The notes: a model not told the origin generated them from the letters alone. A stretch of DNA of 64,000 nucleotides from Nitrosopumilus sp. (GCA_965197525.1 OZ240211.1:544001-608000), one strand, 5' to 3'. Shown: positions 1,581 to 60,992, counted from the stretch's first letter. Program-made: numbers and translations.

Positions 1581-3217
1581 GGGAATTACATACTTGGATT
1601 ACATTATACGCCACTTATTTATAATACACCGATTATTAACTGGATGGAAAAAGAAATAGGAGATTTTATTTATAGAACAGTGATTGTAAAACCAAGGCAG
1701 ACAAAAGAACTGTCATTGAAGGCACGCAGGATTGCAAACTTTCAGACGTATTTTTTCAACATGGACGTAGAGGCAGGACTGGTTGAAAAATATGACAAAA
1801 TCAAGACAAGCCGTACCATTACTGACATACATCACACCATGCCATGGAGCAACAAATACCACACCAATGTGGCAACAACTGCGTTCCAACAGGGGCATGA
1901 TACGGCAGACAAACATTTGAAATCTTGCGCAAAAAAACGTAGGGTACGAAACTGGGCAAAAAAGACTGGCGGTAAGAACCACAACTGGCACACATCATTT
2001 AAAAATCTCAAACCAAACAAATGGATTGACAGAAACAGTTTGTTCAGAAACGCCAAAAATGCAAAACATGCATCCATAACAGTAAACGGTCAGAATCCCT
2101 CGCTAAGGATGGGAAAGTGGAAAAAACTGTACATGAACCTGCCCGGTATGGGCCAGGTGGAGCTGTTGTCGTCTTTGAAGAGTCTTCCAAAGCAACTGGT
2201 ATGTGAAAGAGACAAAAACAATACCAACAAGTTCTACCAGACCAACATTGTGTCATACAGGCTTGTAGAGAACACCAAAAAAATCACTGTCAATACAAAC
2301 GATTCGAACCGCACGTTTGAGATCCATCTGACACTAAAAATACAGAGACCTAAAAATACGGATCGTGCAGTCGTATGCGGAATAGACATGGGAGTTAGGA
2401 AATCCCTGGTAGTTCATGACGGAATAAACACCGATTTTTACAGGACGCCTTATACCTGTAGGAGAAAAAAAGATGATGTGATCTCAAAACAACAGTCAAA
2501 AAGAGACGGTTACAAACTGCATAGTAACAGATGGAAACAAAATGATCGTAAATTGAAGAAGATGGAAAAAACACTCAGCAACAGAAGAACCGAGCACAAT
2601 AATTTCCTTGCCAAACAGATTGTGATGAGAACAGGAGTAATAGTCATGGAAAAACTAAACATTGGCAATATGACTGCAAAAAATGAAAAGTGGAAAAGCG
2701 GCCTTAACAGGGAGATTTACGGGGCAGGTATGGGAAGAATGGGAAAGAGAATAAAAATGACTGCCGAAAACCATGGAACCAAAACGCTTGAGATTGTTCC
2801 ACATTACACCAGCATAACGTGTAGTAGGTGCAATATGATCAACTGTGACTCTAGAACTACAAGGGATGTGTTTCAATGCGTATACTGTGGATTTCTGTGC
2901 GATGCAGACGATAACGCAGGCGCAAACATCAGACATTACGGACTTCCGTGCATACGAAGGCTCCCGCTTGTAGACAGATATGGAAACTACAGGTATGACA
3001 GCATGGAAAATATTATTTTAGCTAATAAAAATGGCACATCTAATAGTGTCAGTGTTATTAGTGGCGGTAGGGATTATCGTCACAAGACAGAAGAATCAAA
3101 ACATGGCTTACACCATGTTGTTTCTAAAAAAGACGGCAAGAACCAAGCTGTGAATGATTTGTTGGACTGTCAGAAAAAAACCTTGGTGCAGAAACGTAAC
3201 CTAGGTATATAATTCCC
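1581..3217 (+). mobile_element. TIR-bounded tnpB-only element, family A (1637 bp)
   Basis: 25-bp imperfect TIR (GGGAATTACATACTTGGATTACATT vs GGGAATTATATACCTAGGTTACGTT, 20/25); 8-bp TSD TAAAAAAA at 1573-1580 and 3218-3225; ends confirmed by second copy at 18158-18543. Confidence 0.9.
1644..3212 (+). CDS. tnpB: TnpB-family RNA-guided endonuclease, 522 aa
   Basis: RuvC-I GIDMG, RuvC-II VMEKL, Zn finger CSRC..CVYC, RuvC-III DADDNAGANI; long C-terminal tail. Confidence 0.9.
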   Translation: MEKEIGDFIYRTVIVKPRQTKELSLKARRIANFQTYFFNMDVEAGLVEKYDKIKTSRTITDIHHTMPWSNKYHTNVATTAFQQGHDTADKHLKSCAKKRRVRNWAKKTGGKNHNWHTSFKNLKPNKWIDRNSLFRNAKNAKHASITVNGQNPSLRMGKWKKLYMNLPGMGQVELLSSLKSLPKQLVCERDKNNTNKFYQTNIVSYRLVENTKKITVNTNDSNRTFEIHLTLKIQRPKNTDRAVVCGIDMGVRKSLVVHDGINTDFYRTPYTCRRKKDDVISKQQSKRDGYKLHSNRWKQNDRKLKKMEKTLSNRRTEHNNFLAKQIVMRTGVIVMEKLNIGNMTAKNEKWKSGLNREIYGAGMGRMGKRIKMTAENHGTKTLEIVPHYTSITCSRCNMINCDSRTTRDVFQCVYCGFLCDADDNAGANIRHYGLPCIRRLPLVDRYGNYRYDSMENIILANKNGTSNSVSVISGGRDYRHKTEESKHGLHHVVSKKDGKNQAVNDLLDCQKKTLVQKRNLGI

Positions 3218-4767: not shown

Positions 4768-4811
4768 TAGTCCTCGATCTGAAAAAAAATGTTAATTATA
4801 TTAAAGTTGGG

Positions 4812-5199
4812 GGTTCTGTGAAGTTATAGAGACCTGAAACATGGATGAATAAATATCGTTAATTATATCATAATTATGTTGAATCCAACAAACACGAACA
4901 CGCAATGTCCAGGATGCGGAAAGATATTCCAAGAGGACATGCAATACAGACGTAAAATATCGTGTACCAATTGTGGATTGTTCATGAACAGCAACAACAT
5001 TGTCATGAACACATCTCACAAGCTGTCCCCTAGATTTAGGGATAGTAGAGGTGACATACATGAAGCACAGACTAACACTTTTGAGTTAGCAATGTCGGAA
5101 CCCAGTACACAGGTAATCCGAATAGTCGATATGTCAAAGTCAAGTAATAGGAGAAACACACCTTGGTAAATCAACGGGTACCTATAACTTCACAGAACC
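4812..5199 (+). mobile_element. Non-autonomous family-B derivative (388 bp) retaining the tnpB 3' end
   Basis: Perfect 18-bp TIR GGTTCTGTGAAGTTATAG at 4812-4829 and 5182-5199; interior homologous to the 3' end of tnpB at 55021-56223; no TSD. Confidence 0.88.
4876..5169 (+). pseudogene. tnpB: tnpB 3' fragment (Zn finger, degenerate RuvC-III, tail)
   Basis: TQCPGCGK..CTNCG..PRFRDSRGDI..VIRIVDMSKSS matches family-B TnpB; RuvC-III Asp lost. Confidence 0.88.
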
Positions 5200-18157: not shown

Positions 18158-18543
18158 GGGAATTATATACCTAGGTTACGTTTCTGCACCAAGGTTTTTT
18201 TCTGACAGTCCAACAAATCATTCACAGCTTCCTGTTGGAACGCAGTTGTTGCCACATTGGTGTGGTATTTGTTGCTCCATGGCATGGTGTGATGTATGGT
18301 AGTAATGGTACGGCTTGTCTTGATTTTGTCATATTTTTCAACCAGTCCTGCCTCTACGCCCATGTTGAAAAAATACGTCTGAAAGTTTGCAATCTTGCGT
18401 GCCTTTAATGACAGTTCTTTTGTCTGCCTTGGTTTTACAATCACTGTTCTATAAATAAAATCTTTTATTTCTTTTTCCATCCAGTTAATAATCGGTGTAT
18501 TATATATAATTGACGTATAATGTAATCCAAGTATGTAATTCCC
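18158..18543 (-). mobile_element. MITE derived from family-A tnpB element (386 bp)
   Basis: Same TIRs as 1581-3217; perfect 8-bp TSD GTTAACAT at 18150-18157 and 18544-18551; corresponds to 1581-1893 joined to 3145-3217. Confidence 0.95.
18163..18480 (-). pseudogene. tnpB: In-frame internally deleted tnpB (105 aa, no RuvC)
   Basis: First 83 aa and last 22 aa match the 522-aa TnpB. Confidence 0.93.
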
Positions 18544-18552
18544 GTTAACATA

Positions 18553-23435: not shown

Positions 23436-23477
23436 AAAGAAATTTCAGAGAAGGGTGGTTTAAAGGAAATGATCTAT

Positions 23478-24764
23478 GGTTCTGTGAAGTTATCAGGAGT
23501 TAACCCCTATAACTCGACTTTGACATATCGACTATTCGGATTACCAATGGTGTGCTGGGTTCCGTCATCGCAGGCTCAAAAGTGCCAGACTGTGCTTCAC
23601 ATATGTCACCTCTACTACCCCTAAACCTAGGGGGCAGTTTGCGTGATATGTTCATGGCAGCGATAATATCCCTATCCATAAACAAACCGCAATTATTACA
23701 CGACAATTTACGATGTTGTTGCATGTCCTCTTGGAGTCTCTTTCCGCATTGTGGACACTGCGTGCTCGTGTTTCTTGGGTCTACTATCTCGACTGGAGGT
23801 AGTCCGACCCATTGGGCTTTGTATTCTATTTGGCGTTGTAACTCGTAGAATTGCCACCCGTTCAATCTACGTCTGTACTTGTTACCTTGAGTGTTTCCTT
23901 TTCGGTACAATTTTCTTATTCCTTTCAGGTTTTCCATGACGATTGCAGTCTTGTTTTTGACTGCGTTGTCTACTATATCCTTTGAGATTCTGTGGATGTA
24001 CTGCTTTGCTCTGTTAGTCAGTCTTCTCTGTTTTTCCTTGTAGAACTGATTTTTCTTCCTGCGATCATTTCTGTGGAAGCCTGCCCTGGCGTGTATTGTG
24101 TTCTCCTTTATGGATAACAGTTTGTTTGTCTTGTAGACTGTCACCTCTTTCTCGTTCCCGCACGTCACATTTCTTAGGTTTCTGTCTATTCCCACTTTCT
24201 TGGTGCACTCTATCTCTTGTACTGTTTTTGAAACACAAAGACTGATGTTCAGAGCAGTCAATGAAAACGAGCGCACCGTCAAGGCAGGATCAGATAGGAT
24301 TTTTTGGGTGTGATCGTTGAGTAAAATGTTGATTGGGTTATGTTTCTTGTATGGGATTGTTAATAGTGCACCGTTGTGTTTTATGCCGTAACAGTTTGTC
24401 ATAAAGGGATTTTTGACTATTGGGTCTCTTATTCTGACACCTCGTTTGATTGATTGTTTTCTGTTTGATAATATGCCTGCAGCTCTTGATATTGCACATA
24501 TCTTGTATGTTGATAAAATGCCATAGTTACGTAATTCATGATAACATAACATGGACAACCTCTTCATATTGTGAGTGTCTTCTTTCAACCCTATCTTGAT
24601 GCAATGATTGACCATCTTTGTGAATATATCCATCATATCCATTAGATCAGAGTTCGGCGTATATTTCTGTGATATTGACTTTATCGCTTTCAACGAATAT
24701 CTTACGGTTTAGAGGTTATACATTTTAGGAATTGACATATAACTCACGATAACTTGACAGAACC
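23478..24764 (-). mobile_element. TIR-bounded tnpB-only element, family B (1287 bp)
   Basis: 25-bp TIR GGTTCTGTGAAGTTATCAGGAGTTA vs GGTTCTGTCAAGTTATCGTGAGTTA; perfect 8-bp TSD TGATCTAT at 23470-23477 and 24765-24772. Confidence 0.95.
23500..24693 (-). CDS. tnpB: TnpB-family RNA-guided endonuclease, 397 aa
   Basis: VGIDRN, IVMENL, CPQC..CNNC, DRDIIAAMNI. Confidence 0.93.
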   Translation of the reverse strand: MKAIKSISQKYTPNSDLMDMMDIFTKMVNHCIKIGLKEDTHNMKRLSMLCYHELRNYGILSTYKICAISRAAGILSNRKQSIKRGVRIRDPIVKNPFMTNCYGIKHNGALLTIPYKKHNPINILLNDHTQKILSDPALTVRSFSLTALNISLCVSKTVQEIECTKKVGIDRNLRNVTCGNEKEVTVYKTNKLLSIKENTIHARAGFHRNDRRKKNQFYKEKQRRLTNRAKQYIHRISKDIVDNAVKNKTAIVMENLKGIRKLYRKGNTQGNKYRRRLNGWQFYELQRQIEYKAQWVGLPPVEIVDPRNTSTQCPQCGKRLQEDMQQHRKLSCNNCGLFMDRDIIAAMNISRKLPPRFRGSRGDICEAQSGTFEPAMTEPSTPLVIRIVDMSKSSYRG

Positions 24765-24836
24765 TGATCTATCAAATTTTACAATTATAGAGAAAAAGAT
24801 GATCGTTTTGCAGTACAGTCTATTTGTTTTATACGA

Positions 24837-28455: not shown

Positions 28456-28738
28456 AAATAAAAATAAAGGTTCTGTTGCGTTCATGAGGGGTAATTCTTC
28501 CTGTTGCGTGTAGAGAGGTCAGGCTTGAAATCTCGGTTATGTTAACTATCGAGTGTTATTCCATGATCTTATTCATGTTAACTGTCTGATGTTTCGAGGC
28601 TAGCTAACTTTAAAAAGTTATACATGGTTTTTTTACATAAACGACATTGTCTGAAGCGCCGGATATCCAAACAAGTCAAAGCCCAACTTTTAAGGAAATT
28701 AATTTACTGGACAGGTTTCAGACCTCAATTATGATGGA

Positions 28739-28975
28739 ATGAAACTAGTAATTTTACATGATTCACCTGATCTTCAAAAGGCATTACAAGGCAATCAATT
28801 CAAAATGTCCAAAGCGATAATCAATAGAGAGATTGAGTGCACATTAAACTTGTCACCAATAAATCTCAAAGGTTGGTCAAGATTATTCCAAGCGGAATTG
28901 GCAAGATACAAAAAATTATTTGGTACAATATTATCCCCTGAAGAAATAAATGAAAAATTTAAGAATCCGATTTAG
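28739..28975 (+). CDS. Hypothetical cargo ORF
   Basis: 78-aa ORF converging on the transposase scrap. Confidence 0.4.
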   Translation: MKLVILHDSPDLQKALQGNQFKMSKAIINREIECTLNLSPINLKGWSRLFQAELARYKKLFGTILSPEEINEKFKNPI

Positions 28976-29043
28976 TTTTTCTTACTTGCATTTTGAATTA
29001 TGGTAAGTCATTTGTTGTCGCCCTTGATGTCAATTTCTGCCGC
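28972..29043 (-). pseudogene. IS6-like transposase C-terminal fragment
   Basis: Translates AAEIDIKGDNK*LTIIQNASKKN*, versus RAGIDIKGDNKWKTIIQNAS in the 40840 transposase. Confidence 0.85.
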
Positions 29044-29352
29044 ACTAACGTTAGTTTAGTATGATATAGAACTAAATGATCATCAATATTTGTCCTAGTA
29101 CTAAAATTGATCAATTGTTAGGTTTGAATAGATTATGCATAATCTAGATTACCCATAATCTCTAATATCAAATATGTCACATTTGTCCTAGAATATAATA
29201 TTGATGGAGATAAATATCTAGTATGTCAAATTCAGGCATGATCAAAAAATTTATCCCTCGACACGCAACAGGAAGAATTGCCCCTCATGAACGCAACAGA
29301 ACCTTATTTATAAAATAAATATAAATAATTTAATGTTATCTAAATAAACAAC

Positions 29353-31428: not shown

Positions 31429-32133
31429 ATGTCAAAAACAAGCAATATCATGAATAAAATGAACATTAAAGCAGAGATAGAATCCATATATCAAGAATTA
31501 CTGGAATTAAAGAAAGAACTAGCAGAACAAGAAACTATTGAAAAAGATGCAGTAGTAGAAAAATCAGTAAAGAAGAAAAAGGTAAAACATGCAAAAAAGA
31601 CAACTCAGAATTACTGGAATTAAAGAAAGAAAAGCAAAGTAAAAAAGACAACTGCCAAAGCAAAGCAGTCAAAGACCAAAAAAGCAGTAAGAGGAAAAAA
31701 GACAACTGCCAAAGCAAAGCAGTCAAAGACCAAAAAAGCAGTAAGAGGAAAAAAGACAACTGCCAAAGCAAAGCAGTCAAAGACCAAAAAAGCAGTAAGA
31801 GGAAAAAAGACAACTGCCAAAGCAAAGCAGTCAAAGACCAAAAAAGCAGTAAGAGGAAAAAAGACAACTGCCAAAGCAAAGCAGTCAAAGACCAAAAAAG
31901 CAGTAAGAGGAAAAAAGACAACTGCCAAAGCAAAGCAGTCAAAGACCAAAAAAGCAGTAAGAGGAAAAAAGACAACTGCCAAAGCAAAGCAGTCAAAGAC
32001 CAAAAAAGCAGTAAGAGGAAAAAAGACAACTGCCAAAGCAAAGCAGTCAAAGACCAAAAAAGCAGTAAGAGGAAAAAAGACAACTGCCAAAAAAGCAGCA
32101 CCAAAAAAGAAGACCAGATCAAAAAAGAGATAA
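31429..32133 (+). pseudogene. Lys-rich histone-H1-like repeat protein interrupted by an in-frame TAA (31621-31623)
   Basis: N-terminal coiled coil, then in the same frame (KKTTAKAKQSKTKKAVRG)x8 and KKAAPKKKTRSKKR*. Confidence 0.7.
31642..32091 (+). repeat. 54-bp perfect tandem repeat, 8 units plus a partial unit
   Basis: GACAACTGCC recurs every 54 bp from 31647 to 32079. Confidence 0.97.
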
Positions 32134-32193
32134 GCCTAAAATCTGATCCCAAATTATTTATGGAATCTATATTCATGTATAACGAACGCATCT

Positions 32194-39560: not shown

Positions 39561-39856
39561 TACTCACGGTGTTCAATTTGTTTAAAAGCCCGATTTTTTG
39601 TACAAAAGTTGTAATAATTCAGAAATTCTGCAAGTTCTTTGCGGAACTATTTAGCATAACAATTCCTTGTTATCTTTTTTGATCGAATTAGTATTTGAGA
39701 AAATTAGTGTTGTTTTTTAATTCTTAGGTTCTGTTAACTTACCGTCACCTGATTAATCGTGTTAAGTGTCGTCACCTGAGATCTGGTTCGAAAGAGGAGG
39801 ATAAAATATGATGGAAACGCAGATTAACTCTATATCTAGATCATACTTCATAAGAA

Positions 39857-40828
39857 ATGCAAAAAAGAGATTGGATTCTATGGACGATAGTCGCAGGTAT
39901 ATTCATATCTCTGTCATTGCCAATAATATTACCAGACGTAAACGAATTTACAACTGTAGTAATTGCACCTGTAGCAGCTGGAGTCATGATGCTTATTTTT
40001 AAGCAGTATTTTTTTGACGGCATACCATATAGTACGAAAGAAGAACACACGAAAAATATTTGTAAAGTCTACATGTTACTTACACGTGTTGGAATTAAAC
40101 AAGGTAGGCGGAACGATTCACTATGGAAACGTTTTCTAAGGTTTCCAACAGAATATAAACCAGTGGCGGGCCAGATTGTGGAAGAATTATTAGATGGTGT
40201 GCATGTTGAGCAAATATATGAAGATCAACTAGGAGATCATCCTGCTTATCTTCACTATGACTCTGCATTAGAACATCTTAAGAAGCATAGGAAATACAAG
40301 CCTATCTACAAGCATTGGGAAAACACAAAAACCATGTTGGACGAACTCAACAGCAAAACTGGTATTGAGGAAAGGCTTGAAGGCGTAATAAAGGAAAAAA
40401 TGCATCGCTACTTTCCTGCCCTGCAAAGTTTCGCACTAGGAAAAAAATCTTCAGATTTTTACGACATGGATTATATCGTGAAATTTATGATGAAATATTT
40501 CAATAATCTAGACGGCTTTTCAAGACATGCTTTGGACTCTTTGGTTTGTAATAAATCAGGCAGAAACAAATTCGTTTATTCGCAGTGGTATGTTGACAAT
40601 CCTCACATCACCGTGAACTCTGACAGTAAGATAGATTTTAAGACATACAAAAAGTTAGTGAAAGAGATGCAAGAAGATGATTCACTGAATGATTTTTACA
40701 ATGAGTATGAAAATGAACGCTGTAATATCATAAAAGAATTGACTTACTTTCAAGATGAATTAGAAGAACTTGTAAAAGATCTAAAAAGAGGGAAACTGAT
40801 AGAAGGTAAATGCGATGTGGGGTTTTGA
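39857..40828 (+). CDS. Membrane-anchored hypothetical cargo protein
   Basis: Two N-terminal TM segments; no recognised motif. Confidence 0.7.
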   Translation: MQKRDWILWTIVAGIFISLSLPIILPDVNEFTTVVIAPVAAGVMMLIFKQYFFDGIPYSTKEEHTKNICKVYMLLTRVGIKQGRRNDSLWKRFLRFPTEYKPVAGQIVEELLDGVHVEQIYEDQLGDHPAYLHYDSALEHLKKHRKYKPIYKHWENTKTMLDELNSKTGIEERLEGVIKEKMHRYFPALQSFALGKKSSDFYDMDYIVKFMMKYFNNLDGFSRHALDSLVCNKSGRNKFVYSQWYVDNPHITVNSDSKIDFKTYKKLVKEMQEDDSLNDFYNEYENERCNIIKELTYFQDELEELVKDLKRGKLIEGKCDVGF

Positions 40829-40839
40829 TCTCTATCAAC

Positions 40840-41989
40840 TTATTGAGGGATAAGCGAGGCGAAATTTTCCCTATAAAGCGAAGCGTTCTGAATGATAGTT
40901 TTCCATTTATTGTCGCCCTTGATGTCGATTCCTGCTCTAAGAGCTGGCGTATCTCCATCCAAACTCATGTGGGGTCTTATGTAGTTATGATATAATTTGA
41001 TGCCGTCTATTGCAGGAGAATCATCTTTTTTGAGTCCACGAAACACTTTCTCACGGTCTCTGAACTCCCCGTTTAGCCTTTCCTGTATGTTGTTGTTTGC
41101 TACTTGGTTTTTGAAATGTACCTCTTTGATGTGTTTGCTTGGCTTGTGTAAAAAATTCTTTGGTGCAAACTCTTTTTTGAAAGCGTCATTATACGCTGGT
41201 AGACCATCCGTTACAAAAACACTTGGAGTTTTCTTTGTTACATCTTTACCCATCTTTAACAAACTTTGTGCATCATGTTTGAACTTGCTATCAGCTACCT
41301 CTTGAGCAATCCAAAATCTTGTCTCGTTATCCATCATGGCAAACAAATATTTGCGATCTCCTTTGACTTTGAGCCATACCTCATCTGCGTGCCATTTCTC
41401 ACCTACTTGCGGTGTAATAGTGGACAAGTAATTATCCATAAGTTTGGTGTATTTTTTTACCCAGTTGTATATTGAGATATGGCTCATGTTGACACCTTGT
41501 AACTTTAGAAATTTTTGTACTCCTCTAATGGATTCGCCTGTAAAGTACAGTTGCATGGCACTTGTAATAACCTGGGGTGAGGCGTGCATCTTTTCAAATC
41601 CAAGATTGAATGAAAAATATTTTTTGCATTTCATACATTGGTATTTCTGTATAGAGTGGGTCTTGTTCTTTCTGATGCCTTTCTTTTTGATGTCTTCTGA
41701 CTTGCAGAACTGGCAACATGTAACTGTAATCTCATCAACTACTGTAATATTCTGTCTTACCTCTTCTCTAATCTTAAGACTAATTTCAACTGCGTGTATA
41801 TGTTTACAACATACTTTACAGAACTGATGATCTGGACACTGACATGTCCAACCTGCCTCTGTGGATACTATCTCATAGGTATTCTCTGATGACTGTGATT
41901 TTACAAAGTAACGGCTATCATCAACCCTTTCTATCTGGTTTTGTCTCTCTGCTATGATTTGACCTCTAGCCTGTCTTCGATTCGTACAT
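40840..41989 (-). pseudogene. SWIM Zn finger + Zn ribbon + IS6/IS240-type DDE transposase with a +1 frameshift near the start
   Basis: Frame is open upstream of 41634 (CQCPDH..CCKHIHAV; CQFC..CMKC); WHADEVW, VTDGLPAY, NNIQERLN, YHNYIRPH; ATG at 41989 is out of frame by one base (span 1150 bp). Confidence 0.85.
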
Positions 41990-42039
41990 TATAGGCATAT
42001 TAATGCCTATATAACTTATGCCCTTTAATATAGGCATAA
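41990..42039. promoter_or_regulatory. Paired palindromic operator-like sites in a divergent promoter
   Basis: TATAGGCAT-N4-ATGCCTATA (41990-42011) and TTATGCC-N10-GGCATAA (42016-42039). Confidence 0.55.
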
Positions 42040-42063
42040 ATATAACAGGTCATAATACCTAGT

Positions 42064-42237
42064 ATGAAAAACCTAGTAAAGTATTCAAATGTTGTAATTG
42101 CAAACAAGAACCAGACGGTACGGTGTACGATTCCCAAGGACATTGCAGAGATGCTAGATATAACCACTGACAACAGAATAAAATGGACTTTGGAAATTAA
42201 AACTGGTCAGATAGTATTAGAGCTTGTAAAGGAATAA
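42064..42237 (+). CDS. AbrB/SpoVT-like DNA-binding protein (57 aa, below ORF-track cutoff)
   Basis: VRCTIPKDIAEMLDITTDNRIKW matches the AbrB-like xTIPKxIxxxLxIxxGDxxxW pattern. Confidence 0.75.
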   Translation: MKNLVKYSNVVIANKNQTVRCTIPKDIAEMLDITTDNRIKWTLEIKTGQIVLELVKE

Positions 42238-42247
42238 TCATGATAAG

Positions 42248-42508
42248 TCATGGGATTGATGAGGGCTTGCAGTATTCACAATCACGGGGTGGGTTTTCAT
42301 ACCCATATTTTTCAGCTAAACACTCTGCTATCTTGTAGACCTTTTGAAGGGTTGATGCAGTATGCCAATCTGAATTTTTAGCTGTAGGTTGTTTTCTGCG
42401 TGTATAGTAAGGACACGTTCTTTTATGAATCTTGATATCTCCAACTTTTGGTTTGTTGCGATAAACTGCAAATCCATCTAAATTATGATTCAATATCACT
42501 GAATTCAA
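42248..42508 (-). CDS. Small Cys/His-containing hypothetical cargo protein
   Basis: HKRTC..CEYC. Confidence 0.55.
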   Translation of the reverse strand: MNSVILNHNLDGFAVYRNKPKVGDIKIHKRTCPYYTRRKQPTAKNSDWHTASTLQKVYKIAECLAEKYGYENPPRDCEYCKPSSIP

Positions 42509-42712
42509 TTACGGTTAATATATAATCGTAGTTATTGTAGAAAAAAGGATTTGATCGGTCAAGGGATTTGATCTGTTCAGCATCTACACTGAATTTTTAA
42601 ATAATTGGTACATTTTTTTGATTTATGCTTCCTAATCAAGAAAAAGAACCTGAAACGTAAACGTTTACACTTCCTTTTTCAATAAAATAAATGTTAAATA
42701 CAGTTTCGTTAG

Positions 42713-44140
42713 TGTATTGTCCTGAAAGTAGTTCACCCCTCACATCAGGCTCATAACCTAGGTGGGCGCGTTCCATGACCGATTTTTTCAGCGGCATGGC
42801 ATCCCATGTAAAATCTATGAAAGACACAGCCAACTTGTCCATTACTGGAAACAGTGGTGTGTGGGTCCGCAGATGGAGACGCTCTACTGTGTGGCGTTAT
42901 ATAGGAAGACGGAGAGTACGAGTAATGAAAAAACTTGATCAAGCCAAAGTGGAATGGATTATCAAAGAAAAGCGTAAAGATACTGCAAATAACAAAGAGA
43001 TTGCAGCAAAGATGAACGTCTCTGTCAGATGGGTTCAAAAGCTGCACAAGAGATACAAAGATGCAGACAAGATAGTATATCCTGTCCCAATGGGAAGACC
43101 AAAAAAGAGTGCACCCGGACGACTAGAACACTCTGTGATTCTCTCAGCAATATCAAACGAGATTCGAGGAGCTGCAACCTTGGAGCGCGTCATAAGATCA
43201 TCTGTAGGAATGTATATTGCGCACAACTTTATACACAAAGTATTGAAAGATGCAGATTATGTAGATGCCAGTACAAACAAGGGCAAGAGGCGCAAGTGGG
43301 TTAGGTGGGAACGAGATTACTCCAATTCCCTGTGGCATACTGATTTCAAACATCTTGACGATGGCAGATGGTTCCTGTGTTACCAGGATGACGCTTCACG
43401 TTTTGTGACTGGTTTTGGGGTATTTGCAGAGGCAACCACAGAAAACGCCCTAAAGGTACTTGATGAGGCCATAAAAAATCACGGCAAACCAGCATCAATC
43501 CTGACAGATCGTGGTACCCAGTTCTATGCCACAGAGTCTGAGGTCAAGAAGAAGGGAGTCTCCAAATTTGAACAAAGACTGGTGGAACTTGACATCAAAC
43601 ACATATTGGCACGTGTACGACATCCACAGACAAATGGCAAACTAGAACGCCTGCACGGAGAGATACAGCGCAAACTAGGCCACTTTGAAGGTGCTTCAGC
43701 TGGCAAGACTCGACGTGATACCTCAGAGAACTCTAGCGTGGGAGGACCGTTTTACACCGCATCTGCAAAGGATCCCGTGGAACGGTTCATGGAATGGTAC
43801 AACTACAACAGGCCGCATATGTCACTTGACTGGGACAATCTAGAGACTCCGGTACAGGCATTTAAGAGAAAGATGCCGCCTGCTGGCAAGACGGTGACAG
43901 ATAGTCAAACAGGTCAAAAGTACAGTGTAGAGTAACATTATGACATTAAAACGGATGTTTTATTCTTAGTGGACACTACATAATTTTTTGAATAGTTGTC
44001 ATGCGTGGAGTGGAAATGAATAAAATTCATGAATTGTACAGCAGAATTTAGCGCAAGAGAGTTATACATCACTCTAGAACATCATACATGCAAACATCTC
44101 CAAGTTTTGAAGAGGGGCGAACTACTTTTGGGATCCCACA
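42713..44140 (+). mobile_element. IS481-family insertion sequence nested in the cargo transposon
   Basis: 29-bp imperfect TGT-starting TIRs; 14-bp TSD TACAGTTTCGTTAG at 42699-42712 and 44141-44154. Confidence 0.9.
42925..43935 (+). CDS. IS481-family DDE transposase
   Basis: LWHTDFK, ILTDRGTQF, HPQTNGKLER, YNYNRPHMSL; N-terminal HTH. Confidence 0.92.
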   Translation: MKKLDQAKVEWIIKEKRKDTANNKEIAAKMNVSVRWVQKLHKRYKDADKIVYPVPMGRPKKSAPGRLEHSVILSAISNEIRGAATLERVIRSSVGMYIAHNFIHKVLKDADYVDASTNKGKRRKWVRWERDYSNSLWHTDFKHLDDGRWFLCYQDDASRFVTGFGVFAEATTENALKVLDEAIKNHGKPASILTDRGTQFYATESEVKKKGVSKFEQRLVELDIKHILARVRHPQTNGKLERLHGEIQRKLGHFEGASAGKTRRDTSENSSVGGPFYTASAKDPVERFMEWYNYNRPHMSLDWDNLETPVQAFKRKMPPAGKTVTDSQTGQKYSVE

Positions 44141-44168
44141 TACAGTTTCGTTAGACTAATGACAAAGT

Positions 44169-44735
44169 ATGTCAGAACCGCCAAAAAACTCAAAGGCTTG
44201 GTATCTCTTACCAGTGTTTCTATTTGCTCTAGGCGGAGTAATTATGTTTTTGGTATTACGTAAAAAGAACTCACAGATGGCGAAACAGGGCCTTATTCTA
44301 GGAGTTACCATATCAGTGGTTTGGTTTTTGGCTCCAATTCTTAGCGGAGCAGCATCACCTCTATGGTTTCTGGAAGATATAGAAGAATATGAATACGAAT
44401 CTAATAATTTTGAAAAGTCTCCAGATAAGCAGAAGCTTGAGATAGATAAGCAGAAGCTTGAGATAGATAAGCAGAAGCTTGAGGCAGAGTTAGCAAAACT
44501 TGAGGTAGTGAAGCAGATGCTTGAGGCAGAGAATTCTGATAGGATAGTGTCTAATGATCAATGTTCATTATTTTGTGATTCAAACAACTATGAACCAGTT
44601 TGGGCCAAGTCTATGGGTAAATATCAAGCTACGAGTAAATGTCAATCTATAGTCATTGAGAACTTTCAATCTAAAGACGGAAAATGGTGTATTGAATTAC
44701 TAGGCAAAATTCTAGATGATCAATATGCACCGTAA
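44169..44735 (+). CDS. Membrane protein with 21-bp coiled-coil repeats (DKQKLEI)
   Basis: AWYLLP..GG TM hairpin; repeats at about 44424-44483. Confidence 0.7.
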   Translation: MSEPPKNSKAWYLLPVFLFALGGVIMFLVLRKKNSQMAKQGLILGVTISVVWFLAPILSGAASPLWFLEDIEEYEYESNNFEKSPDKQKLEIDKQKLEIDKQKLEAELAKLEVVKQMLEAENSDRIVSNDQCSLFCDSNNYEPVWAKSMGKYQATSKCQSIVIENFQSKDGKWCIELLGKILDDQYAP

Positions 44736-44743
44736 TACGGTAT

Positions 44744-44821
44744 CTATACCTCAAGTTTTGCTAACTCTGTCTCAAGCTTCTGCTTCTCTTGCCATTCTAC
44801 CTCTTTCTTCTCTAGTTGTCT
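44744..44821 (-). pseudogene. Inverted paralog fragment abutting the right TIR
   Basis: RQLEKKEVEWQEKQKLETELAKLEV*; 38/39 nt match to 44469-44507. Confidence 0.65.
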
Positions 44822-45068
44822 AGGTGACGACAGTTAACAGCAAGAGTCAGGTGACGGTAAGTTAACAGAACCCATCTAACAATATGTTAATATGCTATAG
44901 TATATAACATATCTATATCATGAATGAAAGAACATTTCAACAACAATGGGGAGAAAGACATGATGCTGTAGTGAAAAAGTATGAAGACAAAAAGAGAGAT
45001 GGAACCATGAGAAAAATAGTGGTTGTGGACATAGAGGATTAGGCTATCACTCTAAATTTTTATTCAAG

Positions 45069-54930: not shown

Positions 54931-54948
54931 ATAAACCTTGATTGAGTA

Positions 54949-56235
54949 GGTTCTGTGAAGTTATCGGGAGTTATATGTCAATTCCTAAAATGTATAAACC
55001 TCTAAACCGTAAGATATTCGTTGAAAGCGATAAAGTCAATATCACAGAAATATACGCCAAACTCTGATCTAATGGATATGATGAGTACATTCACAAAGAT
55101 GGTCAATCATTGCATCAAGATAGGGTTGAAAGAAGACACTCACAATATGAAGAGGTTGTCCATGTTATGTTATCATGAATTACGTAATTATGACATCCTG
55201 TCTTCATACAAACTAAATGCAATATCACGAGCTGCAGGCATGTTATCAAACAGAAAACAATCAATCAAACGAGGTGTCAGAATAAGAGATCTAATAGTCA
55301 AAAATCCCTTTATGACAAACTGTTACGGCATAAAACACAACGGTGCACTACTAACAATCCCATACAAGAGACATAACCCAATCAACATTTTACTCAACGA
55401 TCACACCCAAAAAATCCTATCTGATCCCGCCTTGACGGTGCGCTCGTTTTCATTGACTGCTCTGAACATCAGTCTTTGTGTTTCAAAAACAGTGCAAGAG
55501 ATCGAGTGCACCAAGAAAGTGGGAATAGACAGAAACCTAAGAAATGTGACGTGTGGGAATGAGAAAATGGTAACATTCTACAAGACAAACAAGTTACTGT
55601 CAATCAAAGAGAACACAATACATGCAAGAGCAGGATTCCACAGAAATGATCGCAGAAAGAAAGGTCAATTCTGGAAACAAAGACAGAGACGAATGAGCAA
55701 TAGAACAAAGCAGTACATCCACAGAATCTCAAAACATATTATTGACAATGCAGTCAAAAACAAGACTGCAATCGTCATGGAAAACCTGAAAGGAATAAGA
55801 AAACTGTACCGAAAAGGAAACAGTCAAGGTAACAAGTACAGACGTAGATTGAACGGGTGGCAATTCTACGAGTTACAACGCCAAATAGAATACAAAGCCC
55901 AATGGGTCGGGCTACCTCCAGTCGAATTTGTAGATCCAAAACGCACGAGCACGCAGTGTCCGCAATGCGGAAAGAAACTCCAAGAGGACATGCAACAACA
56001 TCGTAAAATGTCGTGCAATAATTGCGGTTTGTTTATGGACAGAGATATTATCGCTGCCATGAACATATCACGCAAACTGCCTCCTAGGTTTAGGGGTAGT
56101 AGAGATGACATATATGAAGCGCAGTCTGGCACTTTTGAGCCGGCGATGACGGAACCTAGCACACCATTGGTAATCCGAATAGTCGATATGTCAAAGTCAA
56201 GTTTAGGGGTTAACTCCCGATAACTTCACAGAACC
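54949..56235 (+). mobile_element. TIR-bounded tnpB-only element, family B (1287 bp)
   Basis: Perfect 25-bp TIR GGTTCTGTGAAGTTATCGGGAGTTA; same length as the 23478 copy; no TSD. Confidence 0.95.
55021..56223 (+). CDS. tnpB: TnpB-family RNA-guided endonuclease, 400 aa
   Basis: Close paralog of 23500-24693; D/E/D residues intact. Confidence 0.93.
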   Translation: MKAIKSISQKYTPNSDLMDMMSTFTKMVNHCIKIGLKEDTHNMKRLSMLCYHELRNYDILSSYKLNAISRAAGMLSNRKQSIKRGVRIRDLIVKNPFMTNCYGIKHNGALLTIPYKRHNPINILLNDHTQKILSDPALTVRSFSLTALNISLCVSKTVQEIECTKKVGIDRNLRNVTCGNEKMVTFYKTNKLLSIKENTIHARAGFHRNDRRKKGQFWKQRQRRMSNRTKQYIHRISKHIIDNAVKNKTAIVMENLKGIRKLYRKGNSQGNKYRRRLNGWQFYELQRQIEYKAQWVGLPPVEFVDPKRTSTQCPQCGKKLQEDMQQHRKMSCNNCGLFMDRDIIAAMNISRKLPPRFRGSRDDIYEAQSGTFEPAMTEPSTPLVIRIVDMSKSSLGVNSR

Positions 56236-59914: not shown

Positions 59915-60457
59915 ACAACACTCAAAGTAGAATACAAAACTATATTTTCCTAACAATATTCCCGATTAAACACGATTATTATTTGATATAGGAAATAACA
60001 GAAAAGATGAGAATAGAAAATGCATAGTGTTAATAGTAAATCAGCGCGCAATTCAAGATAAGATAACACGTTACAGCATCAAGGCCATCTAGCAGTATCT
60101 AATTTTATGGCATCTATAGTTTAGATTACTCACAAAGCAATCTAAAGACTAGTAGTAAAAAACTACATGATTGTGTAAAACATTCATGTTAGAATCTTAA
60201 TAGATTATACACTTTAAGAAGAAAAACATCATAACAATTATCAAATCAGACAACAAATGAATAATGATGATGATAAGAATAATGCGCAGCATTAAAAATA
60301 CTACACTAGATCAAAGTAAATGAAATGATACGCTAAAATAGCACAACTGCATAATAGCATATAACTAATATTATTAAAAACCAAAATGAATTTAAAAATA
60401 ATGAAAAAACAACAAACGCATAAAATTATTTCTAAATGCAAGAAATCACTTGAGTTT

Positions 60458-60653
60458 AATTAGGTGTATCTAATTAGGTGTATCTAATTAGGTGTATCTA
60501 ATTAGGTGTATCTAATTAGGTGTATCTAATTAGGTGTATCTAATTAGGTATGTCTAATTAGGTGTATCTAATTAGGTATGTCTAATTAGGTGTATCTAAT
60601 TAGGTATGTCTAATTAGGTGTATCTAATTAGGTATGTCTAATTAGTCGCATCT
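60458..60653. repeat. 14-bp minisatellite AATTAGGT(GTA/ATG)TCT, 13 units plus 1 degenerate unit
   Basis: Unit order AAAAAABABABAB; palindrome CTAATTAG at each junction. Confidence 0.97.
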
Positions 60654-60695
60654 AATTTTAGGATCATTTATTAGCACAAAATAGTAACAATACAC

Positions 60696-60992
60696 ATGAA
60701 CTTATGGAATAAATTTTGGCATTGGTATGAAAACAAAATACTTGGCAGCATAGTAATAATTGCAGTAATTCAGTTCATTCAGGTTCCACACATGGTATGG
60801 AATGCCGATATAATGCTAGAGGCAGGAATTGTGTCAAGAGTACACCCAATACTTGATTGGTTTTTGTATGGAGTTGATTTGATTGAGATTGTCTCGATTG
60901 TTAATGTTGGAATGATCATGTTTAGTCTCATCAAACAAAGATCAGAGAAAAAGAAGAAATATGTAGATGCTACAACAAAGCAAAGTGCATAG
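60696..60992 (+). CDS. Small membrane protein
   Basis: Two hydrophobic segments. Confidence 0.65.
   Translation: MNLWNKFWHWYENKILGSIVIIAVIQFIQVPHMVWNADIMLEAGIVSRVHPILDWFLYGVDLIEIVSIVNVGMIMFSLIKQRSEKKKKYVDATTKQSA

Follow-up and report, generated by a model that had tools for sequence, protein, structure and literature searches.

In IS605 and IS607 elements, the accepted role of TnpB is repair of the site left by scarless excision. Members of IS200/IS605 rely on a Y1 transposase, TnpA, which itself inserts beside the TAM, with insertion occurring 3' of a tetra- or pentanucleotide. According to a recent review, excision-site repair should benefit DDE elements little (PMC13565253). Altae-Tran et al. 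(2023) describe six DDE-associated TnpB branches (DDE-1 to DDE-6) with inverted terminal repeats, together with solo TnpBs, presumably mobilized in trans, whose ends are those of transposase-bearing elements (PMC10691335); the DDE partner families that a 2026 review names for that work are ISL2, IS630 and IS1031 (PMC13565253). Marks of the IS6 family are a GG tip, a CTGT motif, 8-bp duplications and an IS240-type DDE domain, and among its members are clades h and i, which are long and have a zinc finger (Varani et al. 2021, PMC7986276). Transposition in this family is believed to proceed by copy-in, with no excision; the same review lists a single member with a passenger and two miniature elements, and makes no mention of TnpB (PMC7986276). 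TnpB-family nucleases also ride on duplication-making cut/copy transposons as the Fanzors, the eukaryotic TnpBs, of DDE elements with inverted ends, where the target-site sequence is tied to the TAM (PMC3627910, PMC13565253). A related miniature nuclease, AsCas12f1, uses an NTTR PAM (PMC10821844).

The element compared here with these systems lies at positions 23478-24764 of a 64,000-nucleotide stretch of a Nitrosopumilus sp. genome (OZ240211.1:544001-608000), which from this point on we will call the window; its family is referred to as family B. The element is non-autonomous, 1287 bp long and oriented on the minus strand in the sense of tnpB, its sole long ORF (23500-24693, 397 aa, with the RuvC D/E/D residues and the zinc ribbon intact). 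The inverted end on the tnpB-upstream (5') side, 24740-24764, has the minus-strand tip GGTTCTGT and matches the opposite end at 22 of 25 positions; the end on the downstream (3') side, 23478-23502, holds the tnpB stop codon (23500-23502). An 8-bp duplication, TGATCTAT, is present in identical form on the left (23470-23477) and on the right (24765-24772), and is itself abutted, upstream in the tnpB sense, by a TAM-like TTG at 24773-24775 (CAA on the plus strand). An omega-RNA-like structured region occupies 23478-23642 on the minus strand; it comprises a stem-loop and a multibranch domain, which a long-range stem closes, as well as a tail that base-pairs with the inner portion of the 3' inverted end. 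A second copy of 1287 bp at 54949-56235 (plus strand) is inverted relative to the first, 93% identical to it and also intact in tnpB; comparison of its flanks revealed no 8-bp duplication, and a TTG is found at 54938-54940, 8 bp upstream of its 5' end. Both copies, the restriction of the gene content to tnpB with intact D/E/D between 25-bp inverted repeats, and the perfect duplication around copy 1 had been proposed in a first-pass annotation, and all hold.

An empty site is decisive for the position of the ends. An 11.6-kb contig from DNA run X6, which represents a related population with flanks about 94% identical to the window, runs from 23469 straight on to 24765, so that 1295 bases are passed over and 8 letters fit either side of the joint. 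The missing bases are exactly 1287 + 8, and a single TGATCTAT is left. The TTR motif next to the duplication is also present in the empty site, and is part of the target rather than of the element. The stretch 23478-24764 is confirmed as a true transposon with these exact ends.

The genome searched consists of one contig of 2.21 Mb (39.6% G+C, 99% complete) and contains 34 near-full copies at 76-100% identity, along with about 10 miniature derivatives of 208-497 bp that keep only the tnpB 3' end. One such derivative, of 388 bp, lies in the window at 4812-5199 (plus strand), with both inverted ends, the tnpB 3' end with its RNA scaffold, and a TTA at 4801-4803. The copies form at least five subfamilies, the inverted ends of which vary internally and all begin GGTTCTGT. 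Perfect 8-bp duplications flank most copies, every one with a different sequence. That an IS605-type tnpB element, its ordinary IS200/IS605 ends still within, landed on a single occasion in a dead IS6 shell deserves next to no credence: copies number in the dozens, their 8-bp duplications differ, their ends form several subfamilies, miniature derivatives exist, the empty site ends exactly at the inverted ends, and the genome is without Y1 or serine TnpA. The copy census and the empty site refute this one-off reading, and likewise exclude the TCAA-type end without duplication that had been named beside it; the copy collection, duplication count and empty-site comparison proposed as a check on the annotation thus came out in its favor.

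As for the copies that lack a duplication, a by-eye comparison of those in this genome revealed no reciprocal duplication halves. In Nitrosopumilus sp. OZ245003.1, two TnpB copies (L063 and L066) have swapped halves, the 5' flank of each being the 3' flank of the other. Such a swap is what an inversion between inverted copies leaves behind, and accounts for copies without a duplication; being compatible with recombination and with intramolecular events alike, it has no power to discriminate a copy-in/cointegrate route. Elsewhere in the same genome as the window, an 851-bp element (G000:C1:883991-884841) ends in perfect 30-nt inverted repeats (GGTTCTGTAACATTATCG...), is flanked by an 8-bp duplication and has TTA at one side but not the other; it has no blastn-level similarity to the family B element.

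The gene content recalls IS1341-type members of IS200/IS605 such as the ISDra2 OMEGA module: tnpB is the sole gene and shares its 3' end with a structured RNA, and a short T-rich motif lies on the tnpB-upstream flank, with the presumed guide on the downstream flank. IS200/IS605 elements, however, have neither inverted ends nor duplications and depend on Y1 TnpA, whereas 25-nt inverted ends and, in most copies, 8-bp duplications occur here in a genome without Y1. Profile searches of this 99%-complete, single-contig genome returned no match to Y1 TnpA (PF01797) and none to serine TnpA (PF00239, Resolvase), while the positive controls matched. DDE_Tnp_IS240 (PF13610), on the other hand, matched seven loci at 42-61 bits, against a cut-off of 27. 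The IS240-type DDE transposase is encoded not by 23478-24764 but by separate autonomous elements of 1970 bp or longer that have the same end tips as the TnpB elements, and the intact enzymes, 378-383 aa in length, have an N-terminal CxC...CxH zinc-finger region preceding the DDE domain. The autonomous element of 1970 bp has inverted ends matching at 29 of 30 positions and an 8-bp duplication, and its first 18 end nucleotides are those of one TnpB subfamily; overall, TnpB subfamilies and autonomous elements share 18-21 nt of their ends. Autonomous elements bearing the family B end itself occur in other genomes of the genus (L099 and L109), where the transposase was present in 46 of 120 genomes. 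Among the autonomous elements and copies inspected, none combined tnpB with a DDE transposase.

Since the IS240-type DDE enzymes are the only matching transposases and the autonomous elements share the end tips, mobility would be supplied in trans. The lack of Y1 and serine TnpA matches, together with seven IS240-type loci, some of them in elements of about 2 kb with the same tips and 8-bp duplications, makes movement in trans by an IS6-like (IS240-type) DDE transposase well supported. The first-pass annotation, which had already described a non-autonomous IS6-type element moved in this way, is borne out by the duplications of many copies, the empty site and the IS240-type autonomous elements with the same tips. 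Like IS26, IS257 and IS240, the family has a GG tip and CTGT in its inverted ends and makes 8-bp duplications, and its presumed enzyme shares with the IS6 family the IS240-type DDE domain and, with some of its clades, an N-terminal zinc-finger extension (PMC7986276). Classical IS6 elements, by contrast, are 0.7-0.9 kb long with an enzyme of 220-250 aa, whereas the autonomous partners here reach about 2 kb or more with enzymes of 378-383 aa, and the inner 'caaa' motif of the family logo is absent from family B ends (PMC7986276).

Several other elements and repeats were noted alongside. In the window, an 835-bp element at 28469-29303 has GGTTCTGTTGCG-type inverted ends (29/30) and no transposase, and a 5146-bp element at 39727-44872 with GGTTCTGTTAAC-type inverted ends contains an IS240-type DDE transposase frame (40840-41985, minus strand) and an inserted rve-type IS. 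Taken over 40840-41994, this frame, which includes the N-terminal CxC...CxH zinc-finger region, is open for 382 codons and has a Cys codon at the position of its relatives' start Met; its first in-frame ATG would yield merely 264 aa. The rve-type (IS481/IS3-like) integrase ORF within this element, 386 aa at 42775-43935 (plus strand), is probably a nested IS. Outside the window, an element of 3190 bp (L084, G000:C1:699962-703151) has perfect 30-nt GGTTCTGTTAAC-type inverted ends and encodes a zinc-finger DDE transposase, intact at 383 aa, next to an HNH-like ORF and an ORF that resembles a DNA methyltransferase and has a DPPF motif; this IS6-type transposon thus appears to carry restriction-modification-like cargo. 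In the window the tip GGTTCTGT was counted 10 times, in five pairs facing inward, where 1.7 occurrences are expected; none of 100 shuffles reached 10. These pairs bound copy 1, copy 2, the 388-bp derivative, the 835-bp element and the 5146-bp element. Unrelated to the GGTTCTGT elements are two sets of inverted repeats, each about 15-16 kb apart (316 nt, 97% identical, at 1578-1893 and 18231-18546; 73 nt, 100% identical, at 3145-3217 and 18158-18230). The window further contains a tandem array at 31530-32177 (54-bp unit, about 12 copies, the middle ones identical), another at 60412-60705 (14-bp unit, TAATTAGGTGTATC-like, about 15-20 copies), and CAT/CAC repeats at 351-543 that would encode a long histidine run.

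The TnpB ORF matches Pfam model Cas12f1-like_TNB at 9.5e-21, has a weak match to OrfB_IS605, and matches solved chains of both TnpB and Cas12f in the PDB, with AsCas12f1 among its closest solved relatives by sequence. An alignment of the copies with their relatives has invariant GIDRN, ENL and DRD motifs, four invariant zinc-ribbon cysteines, and invariant D170, E254 and D340/D342; with about 400 aa, a RuvC D-E-D triad and a zinc ribbon, the protein has the features expected of a TnpB/OMEGA effector. Of 33 full-length tnpB ORFs, 32 are free of stops. Between subfamilies, dN/dS is 0.07-0.16 at dS 0.6-1.5, and TnpB is under purifying selection, with dN/dS of about 0.1. The value of dS drops once the last 55 tnpB codons are counted in.

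A conserved RNA core sits in the last 165 nt or so in the tnpB sense, where it overlaps the tnpB 3' end and reaches the inverted end. RNAalifold, run on 43 distinct sequences (the genome's own copies plus relatives from two other genomes), supports 30 pairs, of which 18 show compensatory double changes, and the miniature derivatives retain exactly this conserved region. The stem that joins the tail 3' of the core (AAGTC[AG][AG]GT...) to the inner portion of the 3' inverted end accommodates insertions of variable length (0-90 nt) and leaves 6-9 nt (...ACAGAACC) unpaired. Cognate tail/end pairs average -12.7 kcal/mol against -9.7 for non-cognate pairs (permutation p<1e-4), in a test weakened by overlapping segments and related sequences, and the pairing is weak in some subfamilies. 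An Rfam scan of the element at E<=1 returned no omega-RNA family, only a single chance lncRNA match. Contigs from two sponge metatranscriptome runs fall mostly on 23467-23870, and are of a kind that cannot show starts, ends, strand or a guide and may reflect DNA carry-over; one extends 255 nt past the 3' end at another copy. Judged by its covariation, the structured region is under selection, and we regard it as a putative guide scaffold, conserved structure being what the comparison records.

A further pattern lies outside the element. When the flanks of all copies were aligned after orientation by tnpB, TTR was found at positions -11 to -9, abutting the duplication on the tnpB-upstream side, at 30 of 44 ends (background 4.4%, p ~1e-30), and WTR at 37 of 44 (background 8.8%). 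At the mirror position on the opposite flank, TTR is not enriched (7/48). WTR precedes every one of the 25 copies with an intact duplication, and seven of ten miniature derivatives have TTR. A further 17 ends from other genomes gave TTR in 10, WTR in 13 and NTR in 16. Ends of autonomous elements with the same tips had TTR in none of 20 cases, in what is a small control set of 10 elements; a seed-and-extend inverted-repeat search of 30 loci for more autonomous controls returned none that was clean, most ends lying beyond the 1.5-kb flanks. A second TnpB lineage, about 33-44% identical to the first and associated with the same end type and 8-bp duplications, has TAY (TAT or TAC) at this position in six of six usable ends; its census in other genomes was reduced to these six as most matches were decayed or were one locus repeated (L129, L136 and L138, which share flanks). 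The motif follows the nuclease lineage, not the transposase. At the three repeated loci, found in genomes G002 and G136, the last 183 nt of the second lineage (RNA scaffold plus 3' end) are fused to the same upstream sequence within identical flanks; present at three places in two genomes, this fusion may be part of a larger repeated unit.

The one-sided TTR (or WTR) fits a TAM, with a guide that would be read from the duplication and the flank beyond, for a TnpB that would be an RNA-guided, TAM-dependent nuclease. Its form is of the (N)TTR type used by AsCas12f1, an enzyme close by sequence that, unlike TnpB, is CRISPR-associated, works with crRNA/tracrRNA and is not transposon-borne; the likeness of the motifs is one of analogy (PMC10821844). 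Comparison with the Fanzor systems is instructive in another respect. There, too, a TnpB-family nuclease accompanies a duplication-making transposon, but the duplication is fixed (e.g. TA or TTAA) and forms part of the TAM (PMC3627910, PMC13565253), whereas here its sequence varies from site to site, the motif stands beyond it, and the first 8 guide nucleotides would come from the duplication itself.

All this would need another explanation if the tnpB module were cargo and nothing else, of no aid to the spread of the element, with TTR arising from an oriented target preference of the transpososome or from a requirement of tnpB expression for a particular flank. Mobility in trans works without TnpB, IS6-type copy-in leaves no empty donor site for repair (PMC7986276), and a flank could in principle supply an archaeal promoter element. 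Against the last point, the motif has an exact position next to the duplication and a G or A at -9, in which it departs from a TATA box, and the element already contains a TATA-like stretch, 5' of the tnpB start codon; position and composition both make a promoter origin of the motif unlikely. A preference of the transpososome is difficult to reconcile with the absence of TTR from the autonomous elements with the same end tips (0/20) and with its replacement by TAY when the TnpB lineage changes. Nor would mere cargo be expected to be under strong purifying selection, in TnpB and in the overlapping RNA, across subfamilies separated by dS of about 1. We therefore judge a purely passive tnpB to be a rather unlikely account. 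The annotation's wording of a sole passenger stands insofar as tnpB is the sole gene, and 'passenger' is probably too passive a term in light of the one-sided TTR and of the scaffold that extends into the inverted end. That the motif abuts the duplication on one side and the RNA scaffold runs into the inverted end suggests that the nuclease module is adapted to this transposon type.

The bias might also arise at the insertion step itself. A TAM-bound TnpB-RNA complex would then open the adjacent base pairs, mark the 8 bp by means of TTR and fix the orientation, much as RNA-guided effectors direct the transposases of CRISPR-associated transposons. Such steering would account for the great strength of the bias, seen in 25 of 25 copies with an intact duplication, and for a duplication that begins exactly at the TAM-proximal base. 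It would also call for an adaptor protein or a contact between TnpB and a DDE transposase, neither of which is known here, and for an asymmetric contact by which to control orientation, to which nothing in these data points; a TnpB that still cuts would not be expected to keep its target in place for a second enzyme, and the guide cannot match new sites because it derives from the previous flank. We consider active steering of insertion by TnpB improbable. As the transposase itself shows no preference for TTR, the bias would come from the survival of those insertions that happen to land beside a TAM, and this source of bias is favored here, with steering the less likely one.

The explanation that we prefer, and hold to be probably correct as a whole, is that of a trans-mobilized OMEGA module with IS6-type ends, in which the guide comes from the duplication and flank and TnpB cuts empty alleles in a homing-like fashion. 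Its steps, proposed from sequence comparison, would be as follows. The guide scaffold would extend across the 3' inverted end, the inner portion of which would form its last stem, so that the guide would be transcribed from the 8-bp duplication and the flank beyond. Surviving copies nearly always have TTR upstream of the duplication, on the side opposite the guide; an unoccupied site would thus consist of TAM, duplication sequence and flank, a perfect target. The occupied site would be shielded from TnpB, because the 3' junction has ...AACC where a TAM would be needed and the 5' junction offers a match of just 8 nt. TnpB could then cut empty alleles, be they on a sister chromosome, on incoming DNA or in revertants by precise loss, and repair templated by the occupied copy would restore or spread the insertion. 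The homing logic of IS605/IS607 would in this way have been moved onto a duplication-making DDE transposon, and we infer that the module is a homing or retention device adapted to a transposon of this kind. Should these elements move by copy-in without excision, classical 'restorative' homing would find no site to repair, and any gain would have to stem from empty alleles on sister chromosomes or foreign DNA.

The 5' junction admits one other use. A TAM plus an 8-nt match is present at every 5' junction with an intact duplication, and an exapted TnpB-RNA might bind there to regulate the element, or might kill cells that lose the element, with no role in copying; TnpB-derived repressors have been reported (PMC13622181). 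Nuclease-dead repressors would not be expected to keep an invariant catalytic D/E/D, as these proteins do, and intact ORFs persist in copies whose duplication was lost by rearrangement. A regulator or addiction module of this sort has, in our estimation, only a slim chance of being the right description.

Returning to the homing-like reading, a more detailed version can be put forward tentatively, at somewhat short of an even chance for all of its parts together. The TnpB/omega-RNA module would have evolved for a duplication-making DDE transposon, with the inverted end as the last scaffold stem, the variable 8-bp duplication as the first 8 guide nucleotides, and the TAM outside the duplication on its other side, TTR or TAY according to the nuclease lineage; it would drive the homing of a transposon that moves by copy-in and is never excised, or TnpB would even steer the IS6-like insertion.

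Set against the DDE-associated TnpB branches, the family conforms in several ways: TnpB is enclosed by inverted terminal repeats, the tnpB 3' end lies near the transposon end, and the solo copies share their ends with transposase-bearing elements (PMC10691335). Some members of those branches join tnpB and a transposase in one element, a pairing not seen among the elements inspected here. The family differs in that a partner of IS6/IS240 type is absent from those named for that work (PMC13565253), and in that a TAM-like motif outside a variable 8-bp duplication is not described in the part of the original paper considered (PMC10691335). The earlier suggestion that the arrangement had not been described as a class must be abandoned, DDE-associated and solo TnpBs having been published by Altae-Tran et al. 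(2023, PMC10691335). Because of those systems the general kind is already known; what appears to be added is a partner of IS6/IS240 type and a TAM position beyond a variable duplication.

The present system makes testable the role that an RNA-guided nuclease plays in DDE transposons. It is a compact and highly replicated natural case: independent insertions number in the dozens, an empty site is known, and both autonomous partners and miniature derivatives with the RNA alone are present. The fixed geometry of landing-site motif, duplication and guide leads to definite predictions: that the guide starts at the duplication, that the TAM is TTR, and that the empty site is cut and the occupied site is not. 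With this family, an IS6/IS240-type partner with a zinc-finger extension joins the transposases that mobilize TnpB, and such elements can reach more than 30 copies in an archaeal genome of 2.2 Mb.
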